Below are positions 252-9,320 of a stretch of 64,000 nt of DNA, in pieces (position 1 is the first letter of the stretch; every line of letters starts with the position of its first letter). This stretch comes from Cytophagales bacterium (GTDB lineage Bacteria; Bacteroidota; Bacteroidia; Cytophagales; UBA9547), in the NCBI GenBank assembly GCA_004294265.1, contig REAG01000117.1, positions 540 through 64,539 on the forward strand, written 5' to 3'. Position numbers and translations under genes: made by a program. The notes beneath the pieces are model-generated. The model did no database searches, had not been told where the DNA came from, and saw only the letters and a list, made by a program, of their open reading frames with translations.

Positions 252-473
252 TTACAAAGCAATTTGAGATTCGTAAGATTTTCTGAGCTCTTCAAGAAAA
301 CTATTGTCTATATAGCCATTGTTGCTATTAGTATTATTCATAAAACAAAACACCATTTTTGCGTCTAAATCCATCAAAGAAGGCACCGAAACCTCAAAAA
401 TTGAAACTAATTTTTCAATTTTTGAGGTATTTATATCTACTTCGCCACGCTCAATGTGGCTGTATATTTTAAA
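252..473 (-). pseudogene. 5'-truncated XRE-family helix-turn-helix regulator remnant
   Basis: My own reverse-strand translation gives FKIYSHIERGEVDINTSKIEKLVSIFEVSVPSLMDLDAKM...ESQIAL*. This matches only the second half of an HTH_3/XRE domain (IS.IE.G...P....L.KIA..L.V....L). An in-frame TAA lies immediately upstream at 474-476, and no start codon or first helices are present. Confidence 0.5.
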
Positions 474-510
474 TTAATTCATTTAAAAACTTCAATTTGT
501 TATAAATTTT

Positions 511-518
511 TATCTTTG
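511..518 (+). promoter_or_regulatory. candidate Bacteroidota -7 promoter box upstream of the RM gene
   Basis: TATCTTTG matches the Bacteroidetes -7 consensus TAnnTTTG, 42 nt upstream of the ATG at 560. No well-spaced -33 TTTG was found. Confidence 0.3.
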
Positions 519-559
519 CTATTGACTAAGCTTTTTTAATTTTAGAAAGTAAAAATAAA

Positions 560-3500
560 ATGACAACGCAACAATATATTGACAATATAAACAAACGCTA
601 CAAACTTGGAAATGCAACCGAGCATACTTTTCGTGGCGATTTGCAACAACTTTTAGAAAGTTTAGTGCCTGAAATAAGAGCGACCAACGAACCTAAAAGA
701 CAATCTTGCGGAGCTCCTGACTACATTCTGACCAAAAAAGAAATTCCAGTTGGTTTTATAGAAGCCAAAGACATTGGCGACAAAGACCTTGAAGGAGCTA
801 AGAAAACTGGAAATAAAGAACAGTTCGACCGCTACAAGGCTTCGCTAAACAACTTAATTTTTACCGATTATTTAGATTTCCATTTATATATTGATGGCGT
901 TTTTATTACAAAAATCGCTATTGCTGAAATTTCTCCCTCTCCTTTGGGGAGAGCTGGAGAGGGGGTTATCGTTCCCCTGCCCAACAACTTTGCAACTTTT
1001 ACAAATCTCATCAAAGATTTTTGTACACACGTTGGGCAGACCATAAAAAGTTCAAAAAAACTAGCAGAAATAATGGCAGGCAAAGCCAGATTACTTTCGG
1101 ATGTGATTGAAAAATCTTTAACCAGTGACGAGACCCACAACGAAGACAGTACCTTAAAAGATCAAATGATTGCTTTTAGGCAAATATTAATTCATGATAT
1201 TACCCCCAAAGGTTTTGCCGATGTGTATGCCCAAACCATCGCTTATGGTATGTTTGCAGCTCGTTTGCACGACCCAACTTTGGAGACTTTTAGCAGACAA
1301 GAAGCAGCAGAACTTATTCCAAAATCAAATCCGTTTTTACGCAAACTGTTTGGCTACATAGCTGGTCCTGACATTGACGACCGCATAAAATGGATTGTAG
1401 ATAGTTTGGTAGATATATTTTTGGCTTGCAATGTTGAAGAAATTTTAAAAAACTACGGAAAGCAATTCACCTCCTCCTCTGGGGGAGGACGGGAGGGGGC
1501 TGACCCCATCATCCATTTTTACGAAACATTTTTGAGTGAATACGACCCAGCACTAAGAAAAGCAAAAGGCGTTTGGTACACACCGCAACCCGTAGTAAAT
1601 TTTATTGTACGGGCTGTAGATGATATTTTAAAAACAGAATTTGATTTACCACAAGGGCTTGCTGACACCAGCAAAACAAAAATAAAGGTTGATATTCAAG
1701 GCAAAAAAACAGAACAGGAAGTTCATAAAGTGCAAATATTGGACCCTGCCACGGGTACAGGAACTTTTCTTGCCGAAGTAGTAAAACATATTCATAAAAA
1801 GTTTGAAGGACAAAAAGGGATTTGGAGCAATTATGTAGAAAACGATTTATTGCCACGAATTAATGGTTTTGAGCTACTTATGGCAAGTTACGCCATGGCA
1901 CATTTAAAATTAGATTTGCTTTTAAATGAAACAGGTTATTCTCCCTCCCCGATGGGGAGGGCTGGGGTGGGGTTTCAACGCCTTCGAGTTTATCTTACTA
2001 ATAGTTTAGAAGAAAGCCACCCAGATACAGGAACTTTATTTGCAAATTGGTTAAGCACAGAAGCCAATGAAGCCAATCATATCAAGAGAGAAACGCCCGT
2101 AATGTGTGTCATTGGCAATCCGCCTTATGCAGTAAGTTCTACAAACAAAGCAACATGGATAGAAAAACTTACAAAAGATTATAAAAAAGGGCTGAACGAA
2201 CGAAATATTCAACCGCTTTCGGATGATTATATTAAGTTTATTCGTTTTGGGCAGCATTTTGTAGAAAAAAACGGCAGTGGAATTTTGGCATACATTTCTA
2301 ATAATAGTTTTTTGGATGGTATTATTCACCGCCAAATGCGTAAGAATTTATTAGAATGTTTTGACACTATTTATATATTGGATTTACATGGGAATATTAA
2401 GAAAAAAGAAATTTGTACCGATGGAAGTCCAGATCAAAATGTTTTTGACATTATGCAAGGTGTTTCTATCAATATTTTTGTAAAAACAGGCAAGAAAAAG
2501 CAAGGCGAATTAGGCAAAGTTTTACATATTGATTTGCAAGGAAAACGACAATTCAAGTTTGATTTTTTGCTCAATAATTCATTAAAATCTGTTAGTTGGA
2601 ATAATTTACAAAACGACAATTTAAGTTATTTTTTTAGTAATAAACAATTTGATACAAGTGGCGTGTATGAAAATGGATTTAAGCTGAATGAATTGTTCGG
2701 TGAAAACAACGCAGGTTTAGTAACTTCGAGAGATAGTTTTATAATTCAAAACTCTGAAAATGAAGTAAAAAAAACGACACAAGATTTTGCTTACTTAGAC
2801 TCTGAAATTGCACGCAGAAAATACAATTTAGGAAAAGATAGCCGAGATTGGACAGTTAAAAACGCTCAAAAAGATTTAATTGCCCATAATCTTGATACTC
2901 AAAATATCAAACCCATTTTATACAGACCATTTGACATAAAATATTTGTATTATACTGCCAAATCCAAAGGATTTATTTCATACCCAAGAAACGAAATATT
3001 AAGGCATTTGAAAAATGATAATTTTGCTTTAATAACAACAAGACTTTTAAGTTCAACTTTATTCAGCCACTCTTTTATAAGTAATATTTTTGTAGATAAA
3101 TGTACGATTTCTAATCGAGGAAAAGAAACTAATTATGTATTCCCACTTTATCTTTATCCAAAACCAATAAATGAAATTCAAGAAGATGATTTTCAAAACA
3201 AATTGGCTCGATTGGAAGAATCTAAAGTGATTTATGAAAGTGCAAAAAAAGCGTTTATTCAAGTTCAAAAAATGTTTTCGGCAGTTTCAAATCCAGATAA
3301 AGAATTACTTACTTATTATAATCAACAGGTTAAAAACTTAAAGAAACTAGAACTTGAAGTAGAAAAATTTAAAATTCAGCTAGCAAATTCACAAGCAAAA
3401 CCATTATTTGAATCTGAAATTAAACGTAAACCCAACTTAAACCTAGCAATTATAAAACAAATAGCAGATGCGCTAGGCATACCCACCATGTTACCCAACG

Positions 3501-4021
3501 GAGAAGCCCCCTTCGGGGGTTTGGGGGCTCTTGATATTTTAGATTATATCTATGCCGTTTTACATTCGCCAACATACCGAGAAAAATACAAAGAATTTTT
3601 AAAAATAGATTTCCCTAAAATACCTTATCCAAAAACCTATAAGGTCTTCGAAGACCTTATAGGTTTGGGCAGCCAATTAAGACAAATCCATTTATTAGAA
3701 AGCCCAACAATTGAAAAATACATAACGCAATATCCCGAAGATGGAAACAATGTAATTACAAAACCACGTTTTTCTCCCTCTCCTTCGGGGAGGGCTGGGG
3801 TGGGGCTTGTTTATATAAACGAAACTCAATATTTCGATAATGTTCCACAAATAGCTTGGGATTTTTATATTGGCGGTTATCAACCCGCCCAAAAATGGCT
3901 CAAAGACCGCAAGGATAAAAAATTAGAATTTGATGATATTTTGCATTATCAAAAAATCATAGTTGCTTTGACAGAAACGGACAGATTGATGAAAGAAATT
4001 GATAATATTGAGATTGAATAA
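560..4021 (+). CDS. Type IIG single-polypeptide restriction-modification enzyme (N-terminal PD-ExK nuclease, gamma-class N6-adenine methyltransferase, C-terminal specificity domain)
   Basis: Nuclease-like motif GAPDYIL...GFIEAKD. AdoMet motif I ILDPATGTGTFL and catalytic motif IV VIGNPPYAVSS. C-terminal YIYAVLHSPTYREKYKEFLKIDFPKIPYP...IGGYQPAQKWLKDRKDKKLEFDDILHYQKIIVAL resembles the Type ISP/IIG specificity-domain tail. The 1153-codon ORF is intact. Confidence 0.85.
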   Translation: MTTQQYIDNINKRYKLGNATEHTFRGDLQQLLESLVPEIRATNEPKRQSCGAPDYILTKKEIPVGFIEAKDIGDKDLEGAKKTGNKEQFDRYKASLNNLIFTDYLDFHLYIDGVFITKIAIAEISPSPLGRAGEGVIVPLPNNFATFTNLIKDFCTHVGQTIKSSKKLAEIMAGKARLLSDVIEKSLTSDETHNEDSTLKDQMIAFRQILIHDITPKGFADVYAQTIAYGMFAARLHDPTLETFSRQEAAELIPKSNPFLRKLFGYIAGPDIDDRIKWIVDSLVDIFLACNVEEILKNYGKQFTSSSGGGREGADPIIHFYETFLSEYDPALRKAKGVWYTPQPVVNFIVRAVDDILKTEFDLPQGLADTSKTKIKVDIQGKKTEQEVHKVQILDPATGTGTFLAEVVKHIHKKFEGQKGIWSNYVENDLLPRINGFELLMASYAMAHLKLDLLLNETGYSPSPMGRAGVGFQRLRVYLTNSLEESHPDTGTLFANWLSTEANEANHIKRETPVMCVIGNPPYAVSSTNKATWIEKLTKDYKKGLNERNIQPLSDDYIKFIRFGQHFVEKNGSGILAYISNNSFLDGIIHRQMRKNLLECFDTIYILDLHGNIKKKEICTDGSPDQNVFDIMQGVSINIFVKTGKKKQGELGKVLHIDLQGKRQFKFDFLLNNSLKSVSWNNLQNDNLSYFFSNKQFDTSGVYENGFKLNELFGENNAGLVTSRDSFIIQNSENEVKKTTQDFAYLDSEIARRKYNLGKDSRDWTVKNAQKDLIAHNLDTQNIKPILYRPFDIKYLYYTAKSKGFISYPRNEILRHLKNDNFALITTRLLSSTLFSHSFISNIFVDKCTISNRGKETNYVFPLYLYPKPINEIQEDDFQNKLARLEESKVIYESAKKAFIQVQKMFSAVSNPDKELLTYYNQQVKNLKKLELEVEKFKIQLANSQAKPLFESEIKRKPNLNLAIIKQIADALGIPTMLPNGEAPFGGLGALDILDYIYAVLHSPTYREKYKEFLKIDFPKIPYPKTYKVFEDLIGLGSQLRQIHLLESPTIEKYITQYPEDGNNVITKPRFSPSPSGRAGVGLVYINETQYFDNVPQIAWDFYIGGYQPAQKWLKDRKDKKLEFDDILHYQKIIVALTETDRLMKEIDNIEIE
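932..967. repeat. in-frame GC-rich palindromic insert, copy 1 (encodes SPSPLGRAGEGV)
   Basis: tctccctctcctttggggagagctggagagggggtt. Exactly 12 codons (codons 125-136), GC-rich in an AT-rich gene, with a pyrimidine arm and purine arm that can pair. Confidence 0.8.
1469..1504. repeat. in-frame GC-rich insert, copy 2, diverged (encodes TSSSGGGREGAD)
   Basis: acctcctcctctgggggaggacgggagggggctgac. It has the same CT-run followed by G-run architecture as copies 1, 3 and 5, but is diverged and its boundaries are approximate. Confidence 0.55.
1940..1975. repeat. in-frame GC-rich palindromic insert, copy 3 (encodes SPSPMGRAGVGF)
   Basis: tctccctccccgatggggagggctggggtggggttt. Exactly 12 codons (461-472). 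CCCTCCCC and GGGGAGGG form an 8-bp stem around the 3-nt loop gat. It lies between methyltransferase motifs I and IV. Confidence 0.85.
3500..3529. repeat. in-frame GC-rich palindromic insert, copy 4, short variant (encodes GEAPFGGLGA)
   Basis: ggagaagcccccttcgggggtttgggggct. 10 codons. CCCCC-ttc-GGGGG forms a hairpin, with an alternative AGCCCCC/GGGGGCT pairing. It resembles the 3' half of copy 5. Confidence 0.55.
3773..3808. repeat. in-frame GC-rich palindromic insert, copy 5 (encodes SPSPSGRAGVGL)
   Basis: tctccctctccttcggggagggctggggtggggctt. Exactly 12 codons (1072-1083), in the same orientation and reading frame as copies 1 and 3. Confidence 0.85.
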
Positions 4022-4115
4022 CTAAAATACTACAAATTATTTGTATAAATTTAAACAAAAATAAATACATTTACTGTATGAATCCTGCAAATAAAAAACA
4101 CAAAAATTAGAAAAT

Positions 4116-4730
4116 ATGTCTTTAGAAGAAAATGAAAAAAAACGTTTTTTATTTCTGAAATATCTATACACTCAATCAAGTGGAGATGCTACCTATATTT
4201 TTATAATTAGTGAAGTTGGAAAAGAATTAGACTATGACGAAGTTAAACTTATAACTTCTTATCTTTTTGAAGAAAAATTAGTTAAATTCCCAGCTCTTGG
4301 TGGAGTTATTTCAATAACACACCAGGGAATAAAAGAAGTAGAAAATACAATTCGAAATCCAATAAAGAATACAGAACAAATTTTGCATTATAACACTATA
4401 AATATAGGGACAATGAATAATTCTTCATTGCAACAATCAACAACTAATTCAGGCATATCATTTGTGTATAACGAACAAAAATCTTTAGAATTAAATGATA
4501 TAATCAAATTACTAAAGGATATAAAGGATAGTTTTGAACTATCAAATGACTTACAAAATGAACTAATAACTGAACTTCAAACTATTGAATTACAATCTAA
4601 ATCAGTTAAACCTAAAAACATAATTATTTATGAATCTTTAAAAACCATTAGGACAATTCTGGAATCAGTTGCAAGTAACGCAATAGCTCCTTTAATTATT
4701 GACCGAATTACTGCACTTCTTTGTAGCTAA
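4116..4730 (+). CDS. hypothetical protein, 204 aa, function unknown
   Basis: Clean ORF 95 nt downstream of the RM gene on the same strand. The N-terminal ~75 aa look winged-helix-like (KKRFLFLKYLY...EVGKELDYDEVKLITSYLFEEKLVKF...ISITHQGIKEVE). The C-terminal half is helical and repeat-like. No family was recognised. Confidence 0.55.
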   Translation: MSLEENEKKRFLFLKYLYTQSSGDATYIFIISEVGKELDYDEVKLITSYLFEEKLVKFPALGGVISITHQGIKEVENTIRNPIKNTEQILHYNTINIGTMNNSSLQQSTTNSGISFVYNEQKSLELNDIIKLLKDIKDSFELSNDLQNELITELQTIELQSKSVKPKNIIIYESLKTIRTILESVASNAIAPLIIDRITALLCS

Positions 4731-4830
4731 TCATTAATATTTTTAAATGAAGAATTATAATTTTGTATACATGATATCAAATAACACTACCCGCCATGGC
4801 TCTAGGATGCACACTCTGTTGGGTTTTCGA

Positions 4831-5008
4831 TTTTAAAACCGTTTAAATTTGCATTTTTTGAAATATACCAAACCCCCTATCACAGTTTTTGAGCAAGTTA
4901 TCATTTTTTAAGTTCAATATTCCAAAAGCTTATTAAATTGCAAAATGAATATCAAGCTCAAACAAATCCCAAATCAGCAAAAAGCTGAAGAGTTATCAAA
5001 ACTGTTAA
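4831..5008 (+). repeat. direct repeat A: duplicated recJ upstream region plus first ~22 recJ codons
   Basis: Aligns by eye to 6231-6407 with about 10 differences over ~175 nt. The alignment includes the ATG (4945 vs 6344) and MNIKLK(Q/P)IPNQQKAEELSK. Confidence 0.85.
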
Positions 5009-5070
5009 AAGAAATAGAAAATAGTTTAAGAGAAAATTATAATCTAAAATATAATTGTTTAGTATCATAA
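4945..5070 (+). pseudogene. recJ 5' fragment (41-codon leader ORF made by the duplication)
   Basis: Translates as MNIKLKQIPNQQKAEELSKLLKEIENSLRENYNLKYNCLVS*. The first ~20 residues match RecJ at 6344, then the sequence diverges. The TAA at 5068-5070 is 1 nt before the ATG of the next gene (taacATG). Confidence 0.55.
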
Positions 5071-5071
5071 C

Positions 5072-6073
5072 ATGCAATACATACAAGAAATAAAACAAAT
5101 ATTAGCCAATGCAAGGCAAAAAGCCTACACCGCAATCAATGCTGCTATGACAGAAGCATATTGGAAGATAGGCGAAAAAATAGTGCTGGAAGAGCAAAAC
5201 GGAAAAAATCGTGCAGCGTATGGTGAAAGTATTTTAAAAGATTTGTCTATTGCATTAACACAAGAGTTTGGTAAAGGGTTTTCGTATGCTAACCTACGTA
5301 ATTTTAGACAATTTTATTTAACTTATCCCGACCCAGAGATTTGCTACGCAGTGCGTAGCAAATTGACATGGACGCATCATCGTTTGATAATGAGAGTAGA
5401 AAATACGGATGCTAGAAATTATTATCTAAATGAATGTGAAAATCAAAATTGGAGCTCTAGGGTGTTGGAACGAAATATTAATACTTTTTACTATCAAAGA
5501 ATTTTATCTACCAATGCACAATTTCCTGCAACACAGATAAGGGAAATTGAAACTCAAAATATTAAAGATTTCATTAAAGACCCTTACATATTTGAGTTTT
5601 TAAATATAGAACAACCCCATTATGCAAAAGAGCTAGAAATAGAAACCGCATTGATTGAAAATCTACAATCGTTTTTGTTAGAATTAGGCAAAGGTTTTTC
5701 GTTTGTCGCAAAGCAATTCAGAATAAGCACAGAAACAAGTCATTTTTATATAGACCTGGTTTTTTACAATTACATATTGAAATGTTTTGTAATCTTCGAC
5801 TTGAAAACCACCAAATTAACCCATCAAGACGTGGGACAGTTAGATATGTATGTGAGAATGTTTGACGACTTGAAAAAGCAAGACAACGACAACCCCAGTA
5901 TTGGCATCTTACTCTGTGCCGAAAAAGATGAAACCGTAGTGAAATATTCGGTATTGGCAGAAAATAAACAGCTTTTTGCCACCAAATATTTACCTTTCTT
6001 ACCTACCGAGCAAGAACTGATTGCCGAAATTGAAAGGGAAAAACTAAGCATCAAACAAAAACAAAATGAGTAG
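5072..6073 (+). CDS. YhcG-like PD-(D/E)XK nuclease family protein (DUF1016)
   Basis: N-terminal ARQKAYTAINAAMTEAYWKIGEKIV..EQNGKNRAAYGESILKDLS, central IKDPYIFEFL and the nuclease core ELGKGFSFVAKQFRI...YIDLVFYNYILKCFVIFDLKTTKLTHQDVGQLDMYV are characteristic of YhcG/DUF1016. Confidence 0.85.
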   Translation: MQYIQEIKQILANARQKAYTAINAAMTEAYWKIGEKIVLEEQNGKNRAAYGESILKDLSIALTQEFGKGFSYANLRNFRQFYLTYPDPEICYAVRSKLTWTHHRLIMRVENTDARNYYLNECENQNWSSRVLERNINTFYYQRILSTNAQFPATQIREIETQNIKDFIKDPYIFEFLNIEQPHYAKELEIETALIENLQSFLLELGKGFSFVAKQFRISTETSHFYIDLVFYNYILKCFVIFDLKTTKLTHQDVGQLDMYVRMFDDLKKQDNDNPSIGILLCAEKDETVVKYSVLAENKQLFATKYLPFLPTEQELIAEIEREKLSIKQKQNE

Positions 6074-6230
6074 AAATAAATTAACCCAAGTATTTCATTA
6101 TGACCTAACAAGCTATATCAATCTATGTTTTTACCAAGAAAAAATAATAAAAAGAGCAATTTAATTACAGTTTATACTATAAAAATTGGCTCAAGAATTC
6201 AACTTATAAATGCAAATTTTGTAATTAACA

Positions 6231-6407
6231 TTTTAAAGCCGTTTAAACTTGCATTTTTTGAATATACCAAACCCGCTATCACAGTTTTTGAGCGAATTAT
6301 CATTTTTTAGGTTCAATATGCCAAAAGCTTATTAAATTGCAAAATGAATATCAAGCTCAAACCAATCCCAAATCAGCAAAAAGCTGAAGAATTATCAAAG
6401 TTATTAA
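6231..6407 (+). repeat. direct repeat B: native recJ upstream region and 5' coding end
   Basis: Partner of 4831-5008. It continues into the full-length recJ ORF. Confidence 0.85.
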
Positions 6408-8041
6408 ATATCAATATTTTACTTTCAAACTTATTAATACAAAGAGAAATAGATAATTTTGAAAATGCAAAATCATTTTTCAGACCAAATCTAAATGAAA
6501 TTCACAATCCATTTTTGATGAAAAATATGGATAAAGCTGTGGAAAAAATAATAAAAGCCATCGAAAATAAAGAAAAAATATTAATTTATGGCGATTATGA
6601 CGTGGATGGAACTACTGCGGTTGCGTTAGTTTTTGATTTTCTAGGCAAATATCATACCCATATTGACTATTATGTTCCTGATAGATATACAGAAGGTTAC
6701 GGAATTTCAACTTTAAGTATAGATTTTGCAAAAGAAAATAATTTTTCGCTTGTAATAGCCCTAGATTGTGGCATTAAATCAAATGAAAAAATAAATTATG
6801 CTAACACTTTAGGAATTGATTTTATCATTTGCGATCATCACGAGCCAGGTGAAGAAATTCCAAAAGCGCTTGCCGTTCTTGATGCCAAGCAAAACGATTG
6901 TAACTATCCATACAAAGAACTTTCGGGTTGTGGCGTTGGGTTTAAATTAATGCAAGCATATTGTATTAAAAAAAACATTGAATTAGATAAATTATTTCCG
7001 TATTTAGATTTGCTTTGTGTAAGTATTGGAGCAGACATAGTGCCAATAGACGGAGAAAACCGTATTTTTTGCTATCATGGATTAAAAATAATCAATGAAA
7101 ACCCACGTTTTGGAATTAAATCTTTAATAGGAATATCAGGATTTAAAAAGCAATTTAAAATTTCAGACGTTGTTTTTAAACTCGCTCCTAGAATAAATGC
7201 CGCAGGAAGAATTCATCATGCGAAAGCTGCCATAAACTTACTCATTTCAAATACAGAAGAAGAAGCAGAAAAATGGGCTACAAAACTTAATGATAGTAAT
7301 ATTTACAGAAAAGAATTAGATAAAATAATCACAGAAGAAGCCATAGAAATGATAGAAAATCAAGTTGATTTTCTATCATTAAAATCAACAGTTTTATTTA
7401 AAAATGATTGGAACAAAGGCGTAATCGGAATTGTGGCTTCTCGTTGCATAGAAAAATATTATAAGCCAACCATTATTTTAACAGAATCTAACGGAATTGC
7501 AGCAGGATCGGCTCGTTCAGTTCATGGATTTGATTTATACAATGCCATTTCAAATTGCTCAGACTATTTAGCACAATTTGGAGGACACACCCATGCGGCA
7601 GGCATGACTTTAAAAATTGAAAATATTGAAAACTTTAGAAAAGCATTTGAAAAACAAGTTTCAAAAACAATAAAAGAAGACTCATTAACGCCACAAATGC
7701 TTGTCGATATGGAAGTTCCACTTTCATTTGTTAGTTTAAAAACAGAAAAAATAATTTCACAAATGCAACCTTTCGGACCAAAAAATATGACTCCCGTTTT
7801 TATTACTAAAGGATTAATTGACGGAGGAAACAGTCGAGTTGTAGGTGAAATTCATCTAAAATTAGATTTACATTGCCCCACTTCAAATATAAAAATTGCA
7901 GGTATTGCATTCCAAAAAGGAAATTTAATCAATCAAATTCAACAAAAACACCCATTTACAATCTGTTACACTTTAGAAGAAAATATATTTAACAATATTA
8001 AAACCGTCCAAGCTCAAGTCAAAGAAATCATATTTGAATAA
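6344..8041 (+). CDS. recJ: single-stranded-DNA-specific exonuclease RecJ
   Basis: DHH-family motifs GDYDVDGTTA, LDCG and ICDHHEP, plus the DHHA1 motif FGGHTHAAG. 565 aa. Confidence 0.95.
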   Translation: MNIKLKPIPNQQKAEELSKLLNINILLSNLLIQREIDNFENAKSFFRPNLNEIHNPFLMKNMDKAVEKIIKAIENKEKILIYGDYDVDGTTAVALVFDFLGKYHTHIDYYVPDRYTEGYGISTLSIDFAKENNFSLVIALDCGIKSNEKINYANTLGIDFIICDHHEPGEEIPKALAVLDAKQNDCNYPYKELSGCGVGFKLMQAYCIKKNIELDKLFPYLDLLCVSIGADIVPIDGENRIFCYHGLKIINENPRFGIKSLIGISGFKKQFKISDVVFKLAPRINAAGRIHHAKAAINLLISNTEEEAEKWATKLNDSNIYRKELDKIITEEAIEMIENQVDFLSLKSTVLFKNDWNKGVIGIVASRCIEKYYKPTIILTESNGIAAGSARSVHGFDLYNAISNCSDYLAQFGGHTHAAGMTLKIENIENFRKAFEKQVSKTIKEDSLTPQMLVDMEVPLSFVSLKTEKIISQMQPFGPKNMTPVFITKGLIDGGNSRVVGEIHLKLDLHCPTSNIKIAGIAFQKGNLINQIQQKHPFTICYTLEENIFNNIKTVQAQVKEIIFE

Positions 8042-8042
8042 A

Positions 8043-8271
8043 GGGAACCTCTAAAAACCCCAATATTATTTTTAAAAACCCCACCCAAACCCTCCCCAAG
8101 TGAGAGCAATGTCGTTAAGTTAAGATGCTCGAAAGTCCCTCCCCCTTTTTGGATTCTGCGTCTTCGTAGCAGAACTTGGATTTAGGGAGGGGTTTAATGA
8201 AAGTAATTTCTTTAACTTAACGACATTGCAAGTGAGAGAGCTTCATCGGAATTGAATTTTTAGGAGTTCAC
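8043..8271 (+). repeat. MITE-like GC-box element, composite/nested long copy (229 bp)
   Basis: Its ends match the 119-bp family (gggaacctctaaaaacc...tttttaggagttcac). The interior is a 122-bp unit bounded by an 18-bp perfect inverted repeat (8106-8123 / 8212-8229) and a 10-bp direct repeat caagtgagag (8097-8106 / 8229-8238). That unit carries an inverted second copy of the family core hairpin. Confidence 0.75.
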
Positions 8272-8281
8272 TAAATACAAA

Positions 8282-9187
8282 TTAAACTATAATATTACTT
8301 TTCTTATGAACGTGTTCGGGTAACTGACCGCCTCTTAAAATTGTGTTATTATTAAATTTTAAACCTAAATCAGTAGTTTCATTTAAAGTCCAATCCTCTT
8401 GTTTCATCATTCCAGTTTGTCCAAAAGCCAAAAGAGCATTTTCATAACATACTTTATTTATTGAATCAGCATCAAAACCACGTTCATTCATTAAACTAGC
8501 AGTTTTAGGAACTGCCAAAGGATCACTCACACCCCAATCGGCAGCACTATTGATGATAATTCTTTCAGTTCCATATTGCTTTACAATTTCTACCATACGT
8601 TCATTGCCCATTTTTGAATAAGGATAAATTGTAAATGCTGCCCAAAAACCTCTATCTAAAACCTCTTTTACAGTTTCTTCATTATTATGGTCAATTATTA
8701 CTTTACTAGGTAGTAAACCATGTTCTAAAGCTACATTCATGCTTTTAGTTGTGCCATTCTTTTTATCCCTATGAGGTGTATGAACTTGCACTAGAGTGTC
8801 CGTTTGTTTCGCTAACTCGAGCTGCAATCTATAAAATTTATCTTCTAAAGGCGTTTGTTCATCATAACCAATTTCTCCAATACCTACAACATGTTCTTTA
8901 CCTATAAAAAGAGGTAAAATGTCCATAACTTGTTCTGCTAATGCCTCATTGTTTGCTTCTCTAGAATTTAAACCCATTGTGCAATAATGTTGAATACCGA
9001 ACTGAGAAGCCCTAAATCTCTCCCAACCAATCAGACTTGAAAAATAATCTTTAAAAGTACCAACTGAAGTACGAGGTTGACCAAGCCAAAAAGAAGGTTC
9101 AATAACAGCAACTATTCCAGCTTTCGACATAGCTTCGTAATCATCTGTCGTTCGACTAACCATGTGAATGTGAGGATCAATAAACAT
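8282..9187 (-). CDS. TatD-family / amidohydrolase-fold metal-dependent hydrolase
   Basis: MFIDPHIHM has an HxH metal-binding start, with later VQVHTPH and IIDHNNE. The ORF track extends to 9259, but the ATG at 9187 (MFIDPHIH) matches the usual family N-terminus. Confidence 0.65.
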   Translation of the reverse strand: MFIDPHIHMVSRTTDDYEAMSKAGIVAVIEPSFWLGQPRTSVGTFKDYFSSLIGWERFRASQFGIQHYCTMGLNSREANNEALAEQVMDILPLFIGKEHVVGIGEIGYDEQTPLEDKFYRLQLELAKQTDTLVQVHTPHRDKKNGTTKSMNVALEHGLLPSKVIIDHNNEETVKEVLDRGFWAAFTIYPYSKMGNERMVEIVKQYGTERIIINSAADWGVSDPLAVPKTASLMNERGFDADSINKVCYENALLAFGQTGMMKQEDWTLNETTDLGLKFNNNTILRGGQLPEHVHKKSNIIV

Positions 9188-9320
9188 ATATAAATTAGAA
9201 TAAGAACAAAAGTAAAGGGCTTGAAACGAAACCATGGTTTCTCTCAAGCCCTCTAACATATATTTAAGTATTTACGTTATTAATTAGAATACAAATAACA
9301 TGCCAAACTACTTATAAGTA

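Follow-up and report, generated by a model that had tools for sequence, protein, structure and literature searches.

An intact gene for a YhcG/DUF1016 nuclease, in the genome of an uncultured Cytophagales bacterium, lies between two direct copies of the promoter region and 5′ coding end of the housekeeping gene recJ. Here, we report the anatomy of this locus and its variation among strains, and compare it with related loci. The duplication is probably a recombination scar, produced by one homologous crossover in recJ together with one illegitimate join, as in homology-facilitated illegitimate recombination (HFIR) or a Campbell-type integration. All coordinates refer to the window, which is the whole 64,000-nt stretch of DNA that we analysed (Table 1).

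The two repeats, copy A (180 nt) and copy B (179 nt), are identical at 167 of 180 positions (92.8%), with 12 mismatches and 1 one-base indel. The copies match without interruption over at most 42 nt (4922-4963 in copy A, 6321-6362 in copy B), and identity drops sharply beyond either edge of the repeat; among 20,000 random ungapped 113-nt pairs taken within the window, none had 100 or more identities. The repeated sequence comprises 115 nt upstream of the recJ start codon (6344), the ATG itself and 21 codons plus 2 nt. An earlier note, made by eye, had placed the repeats at 4831-5008 and 6231-6407 with about 10 differences, and had them covering the recJ upstream region, the ATG and about 20 codons ahead of an intact recJ. 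Its coordinates are right to within 1-2 nt and its account of the repeat content agrees with our measurement, as does the downstream gene, in which the DHH, DHHA1 and RecJ_OB domains are all present. Copy A, judged from its sequence, is a pseudo-5′ end of recJ that now heads a leader open reading frame (ORF).

Table 1 Features of the recJ locus in the window.
Feature	Coordinates	Strand	Details
Variable restriction/defence island (hotspot)	465-6270	.	Flanks 354-464 and from 6271 conserved among strains
Type IIG restriction-methyltransferase gene, 1153 aa	560-4021	+	N6_Mtase, Eco57I, Type_ISP_C (Pfam); PADLOC REase_MTase_IIG, E=0
h204, 204-aa ORF, resident island allele	4116-4730	+	No Pfam match; weak PADLOC match to PDC-M14B, 1.9e-5
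Repeat copy A	4830-5009	+	U40 segment 4830-4871, then conserved core 4872-4944, ATG 4945, 21 recJ codons + 2 nt
Chimeric leader ORF, 41 codons	4945-5070	+	21 RecJ codons in frame with 20 codons from Type IIG 3′ end and spacer
Illegitimate junction and tail	5007-5071	+	AAA microhomology 5007-5009; last ~9 Type IIG codons and ~35-nt spacer
YhcG/DUF1016 PD-(D/E)XK nuclease gene, 333 aa, intact	5072-6073	+	Pfam, PADLOC PDC-S02, alignment
Perfect 12+1+12 palindrome inside YhcG ORF	5339-5363	.	Codons 90-98; kept family-wide by compensatory changes
Type_ISP_C specificity-domain ORF remnant	6066-6112	+	First ~14 codons (MSRNKLTQVFHYDL); overlaps YhcG stop
Spacer, 117 nt	6113-6229	.	Between ISP_C remnant and copy B
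Repeat copy B	6230-6408	+	Functional recJ upstream region and 5′ coding end
recJ, intact, 565 aa	6344-8041	+	DHH, DHHA1, RecJ_OB domains (Pfam)

A tandem structure of this kind might arise in an assembly if the 42-nt core, at which a k=31 graph is ambiguous and at which the Logan unitigs break exactly, had caused two strains, or a chromosome and a 1.4-kb circle, to be merged into one sequence. Unitig L171, recovered from 3 samples, reproduces window 3637-4951 at 100% identity, L081 does the same for 4934-6350, and the two break off solely at this shared core. However, a 4.9-kb contig from another sample and another strain (L084, 1.2% diverged and with its own variants) runs unbroken from copy A through YhcG and copy B into recJ, the junction between the truncated recJ and the tail is present in both L081 and L084, and the contig of the metagenome-assembled genome was assembled independently. 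The tandem structure is not an assembly artefact, the chance of such a collapse being negligible.

The nuclease assignment is carried by Pfam matches to DUF1016_N (PF17761; 162.2 bits, 9.9e-48, cut-off 32.8) and YhcG_C (PF06250; 187.6 bits, 1.7e-55, cut-off 32.5) and by a PADLOC match to PDC-S02 (5.7e-134), which figures in the survey literature as a candidate defence gene only. The predicted catalytic residues E204, D228 and D243-x-K245 are present and are invariant in a 14-sequence alignment, and E. coli YhcG is 34% identical to the window protein across the catalytic region. An AlphaFold model based on the same alignment is of low confidence (pLDDT 50.9), and a sequence search detected no solved structure for YhcG.

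The leader ORF encodes the RecJ-derived segment MNIKLKQIPNQQKAEELSKLL, which carries one substitution, followed by KEIENSLRENYNLKYNCLVS. Its TAA stop codon (5068-5070) is separated by a single C from the YhcG ATG at 5072. Both the 41-codon recJ-derived ORF and the 1-nt gap had been pointed out before, and we find them as described. The leader is still open in L084 despite 4 amino-acid changes, the promoter region of copy A is no more degenerate than that of copy B, and the same overlap of leader stop and ATG is seen at an independent locus (L148). Capture of the recJ promoter and translational coupling of the leader to YhcG are plausible; however, the TAAcATG spacing itself looks like a by-product of a lost Type IIG stop codon, and in the sister strain YhcG has already become a pseudogene. 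A sigma-70 scan returned 13 sites against 15.5 expected, the sigma-70 model not being informative for Bacteroidota promoters; no canonical Bacteroidota -33/-7 motif was found by eye and no terminator-like site in a scan between YhcG and recJ. Rfam 15 covariance models run over window 4000-8300, which includes the recJ leader and the intragenic palindrome, gave no match at E<=1.

At the left end of the sequence between the repeats, recJ (...TTAAA|T) and the Type IIG gene (...TGAA|AGAAAT) are joined as ...TTAAA|AGAAAT, with AAA common to both partners and the frame kept at recJ codon 22. The tail that follows aligns to window 3991-4047, that is, the 3′ end of the Type IIG gene and its spacer, (p=0.0055 when dinucleotide shuffles are the reference, 0.0005 when random genomic windows are); the similarity is short and AT-rich and its significance is moderate. 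The distance from the Type IIG end within the tail to the YhcG ATG, roughly 30-35 nt, is canonical, the spacing between Type IIG and YhcG genes being 29-35 nt in two related loci (L167, L168). The closest YhcG relatives lie either directly 3′ of a Type IIG gene (L167, L168, L169) or 5′ of an ISP_C ORF (L166), and the DNA similarity of L166, L168 and L169 to the window spans exactly 5071/2-6112, corresponding to YhcG and the first 14 ISP_C codons. The ISP_C remnant was compared as a peptide with the ISP_C ORF of L166 and with residues ~651-665 of the Type IIG enzyme in the window. The best reading of these similarities is that the insert carries what is left of a foreign module in which a Type IIG enzyme, YhcG and a specificity domain follow one another. 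The spacer at 6113-6229 shows no significant similarity to the sequence downstream of the Type IIG gene, to the region preceding copy A or to the flanks in L082, L084, L166 and L168.

Several kinds of mobile unit were considered for the insert. The ISP_C start was examined as a universal cassette end, but it is confined to the 3 closest relatives, and a defined mobile unit was therefore rejected. A transposon or insertion sequence was rejected as well: Pfam searches of the insert and the island, with PADLOC searches also of the island, gave no transposase or integrase domains, positions 5010/6229 show no terminal inverted repeats, and the duplication measures 180 nt here and 33-488 nt elsewhere. 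The rejection of a transposase target duplication in the earlier note is borne out by the same observations. As for an integron gene cassette, the repeats are recJ sequence and not attC-like imperfect palindromes, and Pfam found no intI-like gene within the island. No tRNA lies at the island borders.

Comparison among strains reveals that the region upstream of recJ is exchanged between alternative islands. Three strain contigs (L082, L083, L085) carry recJ without YhcG and with a different Type II restriction-modification (R-M) island instead, typed by PADLOC in L082 as HTH, Type II REase and MTase. Similarity between L082 and the window is limited to 354-464 and to the sequence from 6271 on, and homology in all three contigs begins exactly at 6271, the position equivalent to 4872 in copy A. 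The island of the window contains the Type IIG gene, h204 and PDC-S02, and its junction between h204 and copy A is confirmed by L171. In L084, the truncated recJ, tail, YhcG and copy B are arranged as in the window but stand behind a different upstream island; here the left part of the island is replaced, and a different Type IIG allele and two small ORFs are present. The extent of the left copy varies by strain, the variant upstream of the core in copy A being U40 in the window and of the L082 type in L084. With constant flanks and alternative contents, the site upstream of recJ is a defence-island hotspot. Two further alleles are predicted if islands were stacked here, a donor (Type IIG-YhcG-ISP_C...U40-recJ, without copy A) and a recipient (Type IIG-h204-U40-recJ, without YhcG); both are absent among the five strain-level contigs. 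Beyond these strains, 80 GTDB-representative recJ loci yielded RecJ proteins at most 68% identical and no shared neighbour genes, and a metagenome scan with the 38-nt repeat core gave 0 matches. Three of four related strains lack the duplicated arrangement; its presence in all relatives, which the earlier note would have taken as a refutation, is not observed. The suggestion that the integrated unit might be the whole 0.25-6.2 kb island is not supported: the repeat-bracketed unit is only ~1.4 kb, and the island (~465-6270), though variable, is composite.

The divergence between the copies places them in relation to these strains. Over a 136-nt core, copies A and B differ at 10 sites (7.4%), about four times the strain background (~1.6%; range among strains 0.4-3%). 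Changes private to one copy and common to both strains number 3 in copy A and 5 in copy B and are interspersed; no clean donor/recipient mosaic is seen in this core, and the two copies are closest to each other, with 10 shared derived sites relative to the YhcG-free strains. Downstream, 6271-7020 is diverged by 6.4-8.8% from L082/L085, and divergence falls to 1.6% at 7021. The first ~750 nt of recJ (to ~7020) are best read as a diverged recombination tract, and the A/B divergence equals that of the tract. The nuclease gene itself decays rapidly, as YhcG of the sister strain L084 is a pseudogene with two stop codons within ~1% divergence; an intact YhcG in the window is thus hard to square with 7.4% accumulated in situ. 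YhcG homologues are 72-89% identical across Bacteroidota, in contrast to the 69% of the next RecJ, a signature that supports horizontal transfer of YhcG.

The observed anatomy, donor remnants, strain polymorphism and divergence pattern are accommodated by the following course of events. In a hotspot that exchanges alternative restriction/defence islands, the anchor of homology on the right would be recJ with its promoter. The incoming fragment, derived from a diverged relative, would have contained the terminal part of a Type IIG gene, then YhcG, the first part of a specificity-domain ORF, a spacer and the relative's own recJ promoter and 5′ coding region. It would have entered as a linear fragment (HFIR) or as a circularized one (Campbell-type single crossover). 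Homologous crossover would have taken place inside recJ, near 7020 or further downstream, whereas at the other end microhomology would have allowed resident recJ, at codon 21/22, to be joined illegitimately to the 3′ end of the donor Type IIG gene. The resident recJ 5′ end would then have been left upstream as copy A, and the incoming one would serve the gene as copy B, so that the two island alleles became stacked with no replacement of one by the other. Since the promoter and start of copy A would drive a 41-codon leader ending 1 nt before the YhcG ATG, YhcG is probably regulated like recJ. We infer further that the 1.4-kb unit can be lost through recombination between the repeats and that copy A can act as a further anchor when islands are swapped later on, as exemplified by strain L084. 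The earlier proposal that foreign DNA with a homeologous recJ flank was integrated here gains from the donor remnants, the microhomology, the 7.4% against ~1.6%, the 6-9% recJ tract and the island swaps; and, as in products of HFIR, the insert lies between direct repeats of the anchor, one junction shows microhomology and there are insertion-free relatives, here with a different island.

Similar brackets surround other members of the family. Tight bracketing by duplicated neighbour-gene ends was found for 8 of 48 YhcG homologues (17%), as against ~1% of control genes (2/124 neighbouring genes, p=6e-4; 7/668 genes in recJ loci, p=1e-6). YhcG ORFs from Bacteroidota to E. coli K-12 also contain a covarying palindrome, which is repeated three times in tandem in yhcG of E. 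coli K-12; compensatory substitutions preserve it even though they alter amino acids. G.U and A.C changes, counted as an asymmetry that would separate an RNA from a DNA role, number 12 and 14. The covariation points to an unrecognized cis-acting DNA or RNA element within YhcG.

Several other origins of the duplication have to be weighed against one-sided recombination. Insertion of 5010-6229 in situ at recJ codon 22, duplicating ~140-180 nt of target through a process such as the filling-in of staggered breaks or MMBIR-like template switching during replication, would leave copies that were at first identical, and copies A and B are indeed nearest relatives in the 136-nt core. The donor remnants fit such an insertion equally well, and ~10 independent YhcG loci have a target-insert-target architecture at unrelated genes (ruvC, hsdM, hsdS), implying a de novo duplicating step at first insertion unless each of them arose by allele stacking. 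What makes this route unlikely is the divergence of the copies, ~four times the strain background and matching the imported recJ tract, together with the private changes, of which the functional copy B has at least as many as the non-functional copy A (5 versus 3). It would also require a rapidly decaying YhcG to have stayed intact, and it leaves unexplained why the left repeat ends where two island alleles would cease to be homologous. A different precedent comes from SXT/R391 in the 5′ end of prfC and from e14 and phage 21 in the 3′ end of icd, which leave the old gene end on one side and supply a diverged replacement end (in SXT also a promoter), so that the gene stays functional; they bring their own tyrosine integrase gene, and their recombination takes place at a defined att core. 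By analogy, the repeats could represent attL and attR on either side of a small element that lacks an integrase, is mobilized in trans and provides a replacement recJ 5′ end. The succession of old gene end, element, new gene end and rest of the gene is shared, and a 42-nt identical core lies within otherwise diverged repeats. In contrast to those elements, neither insert nor island contains an integrase and no tRNA is present, the insert is built of truncated pieces of neighbour genes, the extent of the left copy varies by strain and the metagenome scan for the core gave no further copies, leaving a site-specific element very improbable.

The family-wide pattern raises the question of whether YhcG mobilizes itself. 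In a homing-like process, breaks made by its own PD-(D/E)XK domain would drive insertion, the duplications would be the footprint and the palindrome a cis site. Such a process would agree with the enrichment of bracketing repeats around YhcG in independent events, with the strong conservation of YhcG across taxa and with the covarying palindrome that extends to E. coli yhcG. But there are no conserved cassette ends, since the flanks are shared by the nearest relatives only and are fragments of neighbour genes, and repeat lengths range from 33 to 488 nt. Moreover, YhcG is a regular, overlapping member of R-M operons (PMC9881135), and the few control genes that have such brackets are unrelated in their products (AAA_14-DUF4143, RhuM, HEPN), which argues for a host process acting on often-transferred genes rather than an activity specific to YhcG. 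We consider self-mobilization a doubtful origin for this duplication. Extended to the family, it would make YhcG/DUF1016 genes selfish recombinogenic single-gene elements, with the palindrome as a putative cis site (hairpin, cruciform or dyad) for the encoded nuclease, whose breaks drive insertion at gene junctions; this is a speculative and rather unlikely idea. In a weaker version, the palindrome alone would be new, as a nucleic-acid element that has an autoregulatory or structural role and is conserved between phyla.

One-sided recombination, the reading that we prefer, has close counterparts. Of 60 events obtained in E. coli HFIR assays, 56 proved to be single crossovers involving a circular molecule, and these left duplications of the homologous locus of 109-950 bp around the insert (PMC3240628). 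Those products and the recJ locus share a direct duplication of the anchor around the insert, with one homologous junction and one illegitimate junction at microhomology; here, however, the event is natural, and the anchor is a promoter and gene 5′ end, which is how a chimeric leader ORF was created. At Rhs and T6SS effector-immunity loci, where C-terminal displacement and arrays of orphan immunity genes occur, HFIR has been put forward as the way in which alleles come to be stacked (PMC5361080). There too, an incoming module uses a conserved anchor, displaces the resident and leaves truncated remnants, but the anchor is the conserved core of a toxin gene, whereas at this locus it is the 5′ end of a housekeeping gene and the remnant is the recJ pseudo-5′ end. 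Defence-island hotspots in E. coli and P. aeruginosa are the subject of published work (PMC10121019, PMC10250203). The site beside recJ resembles hotspots between core genes in its common flanks, its alternative contents (Type IIG and PDC-S02 versus Type II R-M) and its lack of mobility genes; it differs in lying beside recJ in Cytophagales and in having undergone a partial event that stacks alleles and duplicates the anchor. For the family, DUF1016 is 17-fold enriched beside R-M specificity genes undergoing programmed rearrangement and occurs between Type I core genes and beside Type IIG cj0031-like genes (PMC9881135). The R-M contexts that we see are alike, but neighbour-end duplications and the palindrome within the ORF are not part of that work, and we found no description in the literature of junction duplications around DUF1016 genes or of an intragenic palindrome.

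The scar itself is of an ordinary kind; the YhcG family carries such scars unusually often. On the preferred reading, the locus is a clean natural example of defence-island growth by one-sided recombination, in which stacking gives the newcomer ready-made expression signals, in the form of a duplicated promoter and start, as well as a new anchor for swaps. Solitary nuclease or defence genes, YhcG and apparently also AAA_14-DUF4143, RhuM and HEPN, often lie between duplicated neighbour ends, and this bracketing could serve as a genomic footprint by which integrase-free gene acquisition is dated and traced. The palindrome, in turn, concerns a very widespread nuclease family that includes an uncharacterized gene of E. 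coli K-12.

The direct repeats of the recJ upstream region and 5′ coding end on either side of YhcG, previously described by eye, were confirmed with coordinates right to within 1–2 nt. The window derives from a 65.6-kb contig of a Cytophagales MAG, and the two repeat copies, A and B, agree at 167 aligned positions, with 12 mismatches and one 1-nt indel; their longest identical run is 42 nt, and similarity is lost abruptly at both repeat edges. Of 20,000 ungapped 113-nt pairs taken at random from the window, none had as many as 100 identities. Copy A heads a leader ORF whose TAA is followed by a C and then by the YhcG ATG. This leader is open in both YhcG-bearing strains, the window and L084 (a contig from a different sample, strain 1.2% diverged), with its stop 1 nt before the YhcG ATG, and the peptide is not conserved (four replacements between the two). 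L084 carries copy A, the segment between copy A and YhcG (the tail), YhcG, copy B and recJ on a single contig. Two Logan unitigs match the window at 100% identity, L171 (three samples) over 3637–4951 and L081 (another run) over 4934–6350; the breaks are confined to the 42-nt shared core, where a k=31 graph has to break, and such a graph by itself would be the same whether the copies lie in tandem or a chromosome is accompanied by a circle, whereas the single L084 contig has them in tandem.

Coordinates of features in the window and of bracketed genes in other loci.
Feature	Location	Size	Description
Type IIG ORF	560–4021		restriction-methyltransferase
GC-rich hairpin element	931–964, 1939–1972, 3772–3805		within the Type IIG ORF
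Small ORF	4116–4730	204 aa	between Type IIG gene and copy A
Copy A	4830–5009	180 nt	
Leader ORF	4945–5070	41 codons	headed by copy A
YhcG	5072–6073	333 aa	DUF1016_N (9.9e-48), YhcG_C (1.7e-55)
Palindrome	5339–5363	12+1+12	YhcG codons 90–98
Copy B	6230–6408	179 nt	recJ upstream region, ATG (6344) and 21 codons plus 2 nt
recJ	ATG 6344	565 aa	DHH, DHHA1, RecJ_OB
Hairpin, partial inverted copy	8076–8098		
YhcG loci with bracketing repeats	L093, L102, L109, L110/L114, L111, L119, L135, L139, L148, L157		
Bracketed control genes	L001 8079–9266; L023 7067–8422; L039 14182–15537; L029 11718–12737; L117 4124–5680		

The nearest YhcG homologues (80–89% identity) occupy a canonical module. YhcG lies directly 3′ of a Type IIG gene in L167, L168 and L169 (spacer 29–35 nt), directly 5′ of a Type_ISP_C specificity ORF in L166, where the ORF ATG overlaps the YhcG stop, and between hsdM and the next gene, with overlaps, in L170. 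The DNA similarity of these loci to the window extends exactly from 5071/5072 to 6112, that is, over YhcG plus 39 nt. These 39 nt encode MSRNKLTQVFHYDL, a match both to the beginning of the L166 ISP_C ORF (MSNNKLAQVFHFDLQGKR) and to residues ~651–665 of the window's own Type IIG enzyme. The 62-nt tail aligns with the last nine codons of the window Type IIG gene and its downstream spacer (3991–4047; p=0.0055 against dinucleotide shuffles, 0.0005 against 2,000 random genomic windows), and the implied lost stop lies ~35 nt before the YhcG ATG, as in the canonical module; this modest, statistical signal suggests that the tail is a remnant of a Type IIG 3′ end and spacer. At the junction, with the join marked by a slash, the recJ side reads ...TTATTAAA/TATC, the Type IIG side ...GATGAA/AGAAATTGAT and copy A as found ...CTGTTAAA/AGAAATAGAA, with a 3-nt microhomology and both reading frames kept in register. 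The remaining 117 nt (6113–6229) match no sequence tested. The insert is made of module remnants and thus appears to be a truncated piece of a foreign Type IIG–YhcG–ISP_C module rather than a defined element. Searches there for a transposase, an integrase, a tRNA and terminal inverted repeats were all negative, which upholds the view that the repeat did not come from a transposon. Among the related loci, L166 (18–2547) has a split Type IIG system in which YhcG is present twice in tandem, upstream of an ISP_C specificity ORF that stands on its own. L168 (1–4329) has a full Type IIG gene, YhcG and a second, internally deleted ISP_C copy (start and last 33 nt), YhcG again being flanked by duplicated specificity-domain sequence.

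Among GTDB representative genomes the closest RecJ has 68% identity, and its locus is not syntenic with the window. The 90% RecJ cluster contained three strain variants, and the comparison covered five strain-level contigs. L082, L083 and L085 contain recJ without YhcG, and upstream of it an HTH gene, a Type II restriction enzyme and a methyltransferase, so the YhcG-less arrangement looked for in relatives does exist, though with a different island. Their homology to the window begins at 6271, 73 nt before the recJ ATG (4872 in copy A), and resumes in the far-side flank at 354–464. In between, the window holds the Type IIG gene, the 204-aa ORF and YhcG (PADLOC candidate defence gene PDC-S02). 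L084 has a 77%-identical Type IIG allele and two small ORFs adjoining copy A, and the upstream part of its copy A is of the L082 type, not the 40-nt leftmost segment present in both window copies. These differing contents identify the site upstream of recJ as a restriction/defence-island hotspot, whose right-hand recombination anchor is recJ with its promoter; by sequence comparison, L084 would show copy A itself serving as the anchor for a later island swap. The 204-aa ORF has no Pfam domain, weak PADLOC PDC-M14B matches (E about 2e-5) and no homologue in any fetched locus.

A GC-rich hairpin element (TTCTCCCTCnCCnnnGGGGAGGGCTGGGGTGGGG) is present in three copies in the window Type IIG gene. 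All three share one orientation and codon phase and are translated as SPSPxGRAG(V/E)G. The element is absent at these positions from homologous Type IIG enzymes, which indicates in-frame insertions, and its core motif recurs in two other contigs, L005 (four copies) and L074. Palindromic elements that insert into coding sequences are known in Rickettsia, and the hairpin element resembles them.

Whether the copies arose identical and diverged in place, or differed when the arrangement formed, was assessed on the 136-nt core common to all strains. A and B differ at 10 positions, each differs from the YhcG-free strains at 15, and they share 10 derived sites; private changes found in both YhcG-bearing strains number three in A and five in B. 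The window diverges from L082 by 0.4–3% beyond 9271 and 1.6% at 7021–7270 but by 6.4–8.8% over 6271–7020, which marks the recJ promoter and first ~750 nt as a recombination tract from a diverged source. The A/B divergence of 7.4% is at the level of this imported tract, about four times background. Within about 1% divergence, the L084 YhcG gene (1937–2938, equivalent to window 5072–6073) has gained two premature stops (Q5*, E191*) without any indel, beside an intact recJ. The cassette is decaying there, and with decay this fast, the intact window YhcG is hard to square with a duplication of the age that 7.4% divergence in place would require. This modest, statistical evidence favours, without proving, copies that were homeologous at formation. 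Differences between the window and L084 are clustered (about 4% at 4874–5225 and 7280–7585, about 0.6% elsewhere), indicating further recombination with a third lineage of the same arrangement. At the other end of recJ, divergence from L082/L085 rises from 1.6% to 18.4% in the last 250 nt (7771–8020), the recJ–tatD intergenic region (8042–8272) has about 230 nt extra where L082 has 20 nt, and the tatD region (8271–9270) is 5–9% diverged against the 0.4–3% background, indicating a second mosaic or hotspot on the 3′ side of recJ.

The simplest history would comprise one homologous crossover in recJ and one illegitimate join. The join would connect resident DNA up to recJ codon 21/22 with a donor fragment that started in a Type IIG 3′ end and reached into recJ, carrying in between YhcG, the ISP_C remnant, the spacer and the recJ upstream region native to the donor. 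This would be homology-facilitated illegitimate recombination (HFIR) or, equivalently, Campbell-type single crossover of a circularised fragment; the left repeat end would be the point where two island alleles lose homology, and the right end the illegitimate join. In E. coli HFIR assays, 56 of 60 events were single crossovers that left the insert flanked by duplicates of 109–950 bp of the homologous locus (PMC3240628), as the recJ 5′ end is duplicated around YhcG. For T6SS effector–immunity and Rhs arrays, alleles have been proposed to stack in the same way (PMC5361080). The donor remnants, microhomology junction and imported-level A/B divergence support the earlier note's proposal that foreign DNA with a homeologous recJ flank was integrated by recombination; the integrated unit, which it took to be possibly the whole 0.25–6.2 kb island, is corrected to 1.4 kb. 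Copy A keeps the conserved 73-nt upstream core, differing from the functional promoters of YhcG-free strains at four positions (B at five), so its promoter may well have stayed active and drive transcription of the leader and YhcG. A sequence scan found no terminator-like site between YhcG and recJ. The place where the leader ends seems to follow incidentally from the loss of the Type IIG stop codon, and translational coupling of leader to YhcG is possible, if unproven. The 1.4-kb unit should be deletable by homologous recombination between the repeats.

Direct repeats of local sequence bracket many of 80 metagenomic loci with YhcG homologues. In this survey of metagenomic contigs, with ORF-based controls and 600-nt flanks, 8/48 YhcG homologues (17%) were tightly bracketed, compared with 2/124 other genes in the same loci (Fisher p=6e-4) and 7/668 genes in recJ loci (p=1e-6), about 1% of controls overall. 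The repeats are unrelated from locus to locus, except that L110 is the same locus as L114. The duplicated segment is the 5′ end of the downstream gene, as at recJ, for ruvC (L093) and hsdM (L148), and the 3′ end of the upstream gene for hsdM (L114, L135) and hsdS (L139). In L148 (5909–5990) a leader derived from hsdM, read out of frame, ends where its stop codon and the YhcG start overlap as ATGA. This is a second, independent leader ORF that originates in the gene downstream and runs up to the YhcG ATG; the first three YhcG codons (MNA) align there with hsdM codons 24–26 of the duplicated 5′ end. The enrichment could reflect an activity of YhcG itself. However, the bracketed controls are solitary defence-type genes for unrelated proteins: AAA_14–DUF4143 in three cases, of which the one in L001 lies immediately upstream of recJ, together with RhuM and a HEPN protein. 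The footprint is therefore better read as the trace of one-sided recombination by which genes were acquired without an integrase than as YhcG activity. Association of DUF1016 and RhuM with rearranging R–M loci, where duplications were not described (PMC9881135), fits one-sided recombination, and bracketing may mark, more generally, solitary defence genes that were taken up with no integrase involved.

YhcG itself contains a perfect palindrome (ATTTGCTACGCA G TGCGTAGCAAAT). Across 87 homologues the arms vary yet stay complementary (CTACACA/TGTGTAG, GGCTCCGCG/CGCGGAGCC, CGGCAGACA/TGTCTGCCG, TGGCACTCG/CGAGTGCCA), and the encoded amino acids consequently change. In 48 distinct sequences, 89% of cells pair, 9 of 12 pairs have changes on both sides, and compensatory cells number 69 compared with 24.2 ± 4.2 in shuffles (0/500 reaching the observed value); the covariation score is 0.320, falling to 0.014–0.094 when the partner column is slid. 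The palindrome folds at −20 kcal/mol (z = −4.75). In viral-contig homologues (42–63% identity) this position is likewise palindromic, with arms of unrelated sequence and a centre of 0–3 nt, L125, L145 and L149 have two to three units, and E. coli K-12 yhcG (L201, 7828–8955; 34% identity) has three tandem units at nt ~300–410 of the gene, including a perfect 15+3+15 palindrome. The E. coli insertion suggests that this part of the protein, for which the AlphaFold model was too poor to use, tolerates insertions. G.T and A.C mismatches are equally frequent (12 and 14), favouring neither an RNA nor a DNA role; Rfam 15 gave no match in window 4000–8300, and the literature searched holds no description of an intragenic YhcG palindrome. 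The covariation argues that compensatory changes preserve the palindrome throughout the family, at the expense of the protein sequence.

The proposed mechanism is already known, and the recJ/YhcG locus would be a further example of it; what the analysis adds is a picture of a hotspot with allele stacking, a family-wide bracketing statistic and the intragenic palindrome.
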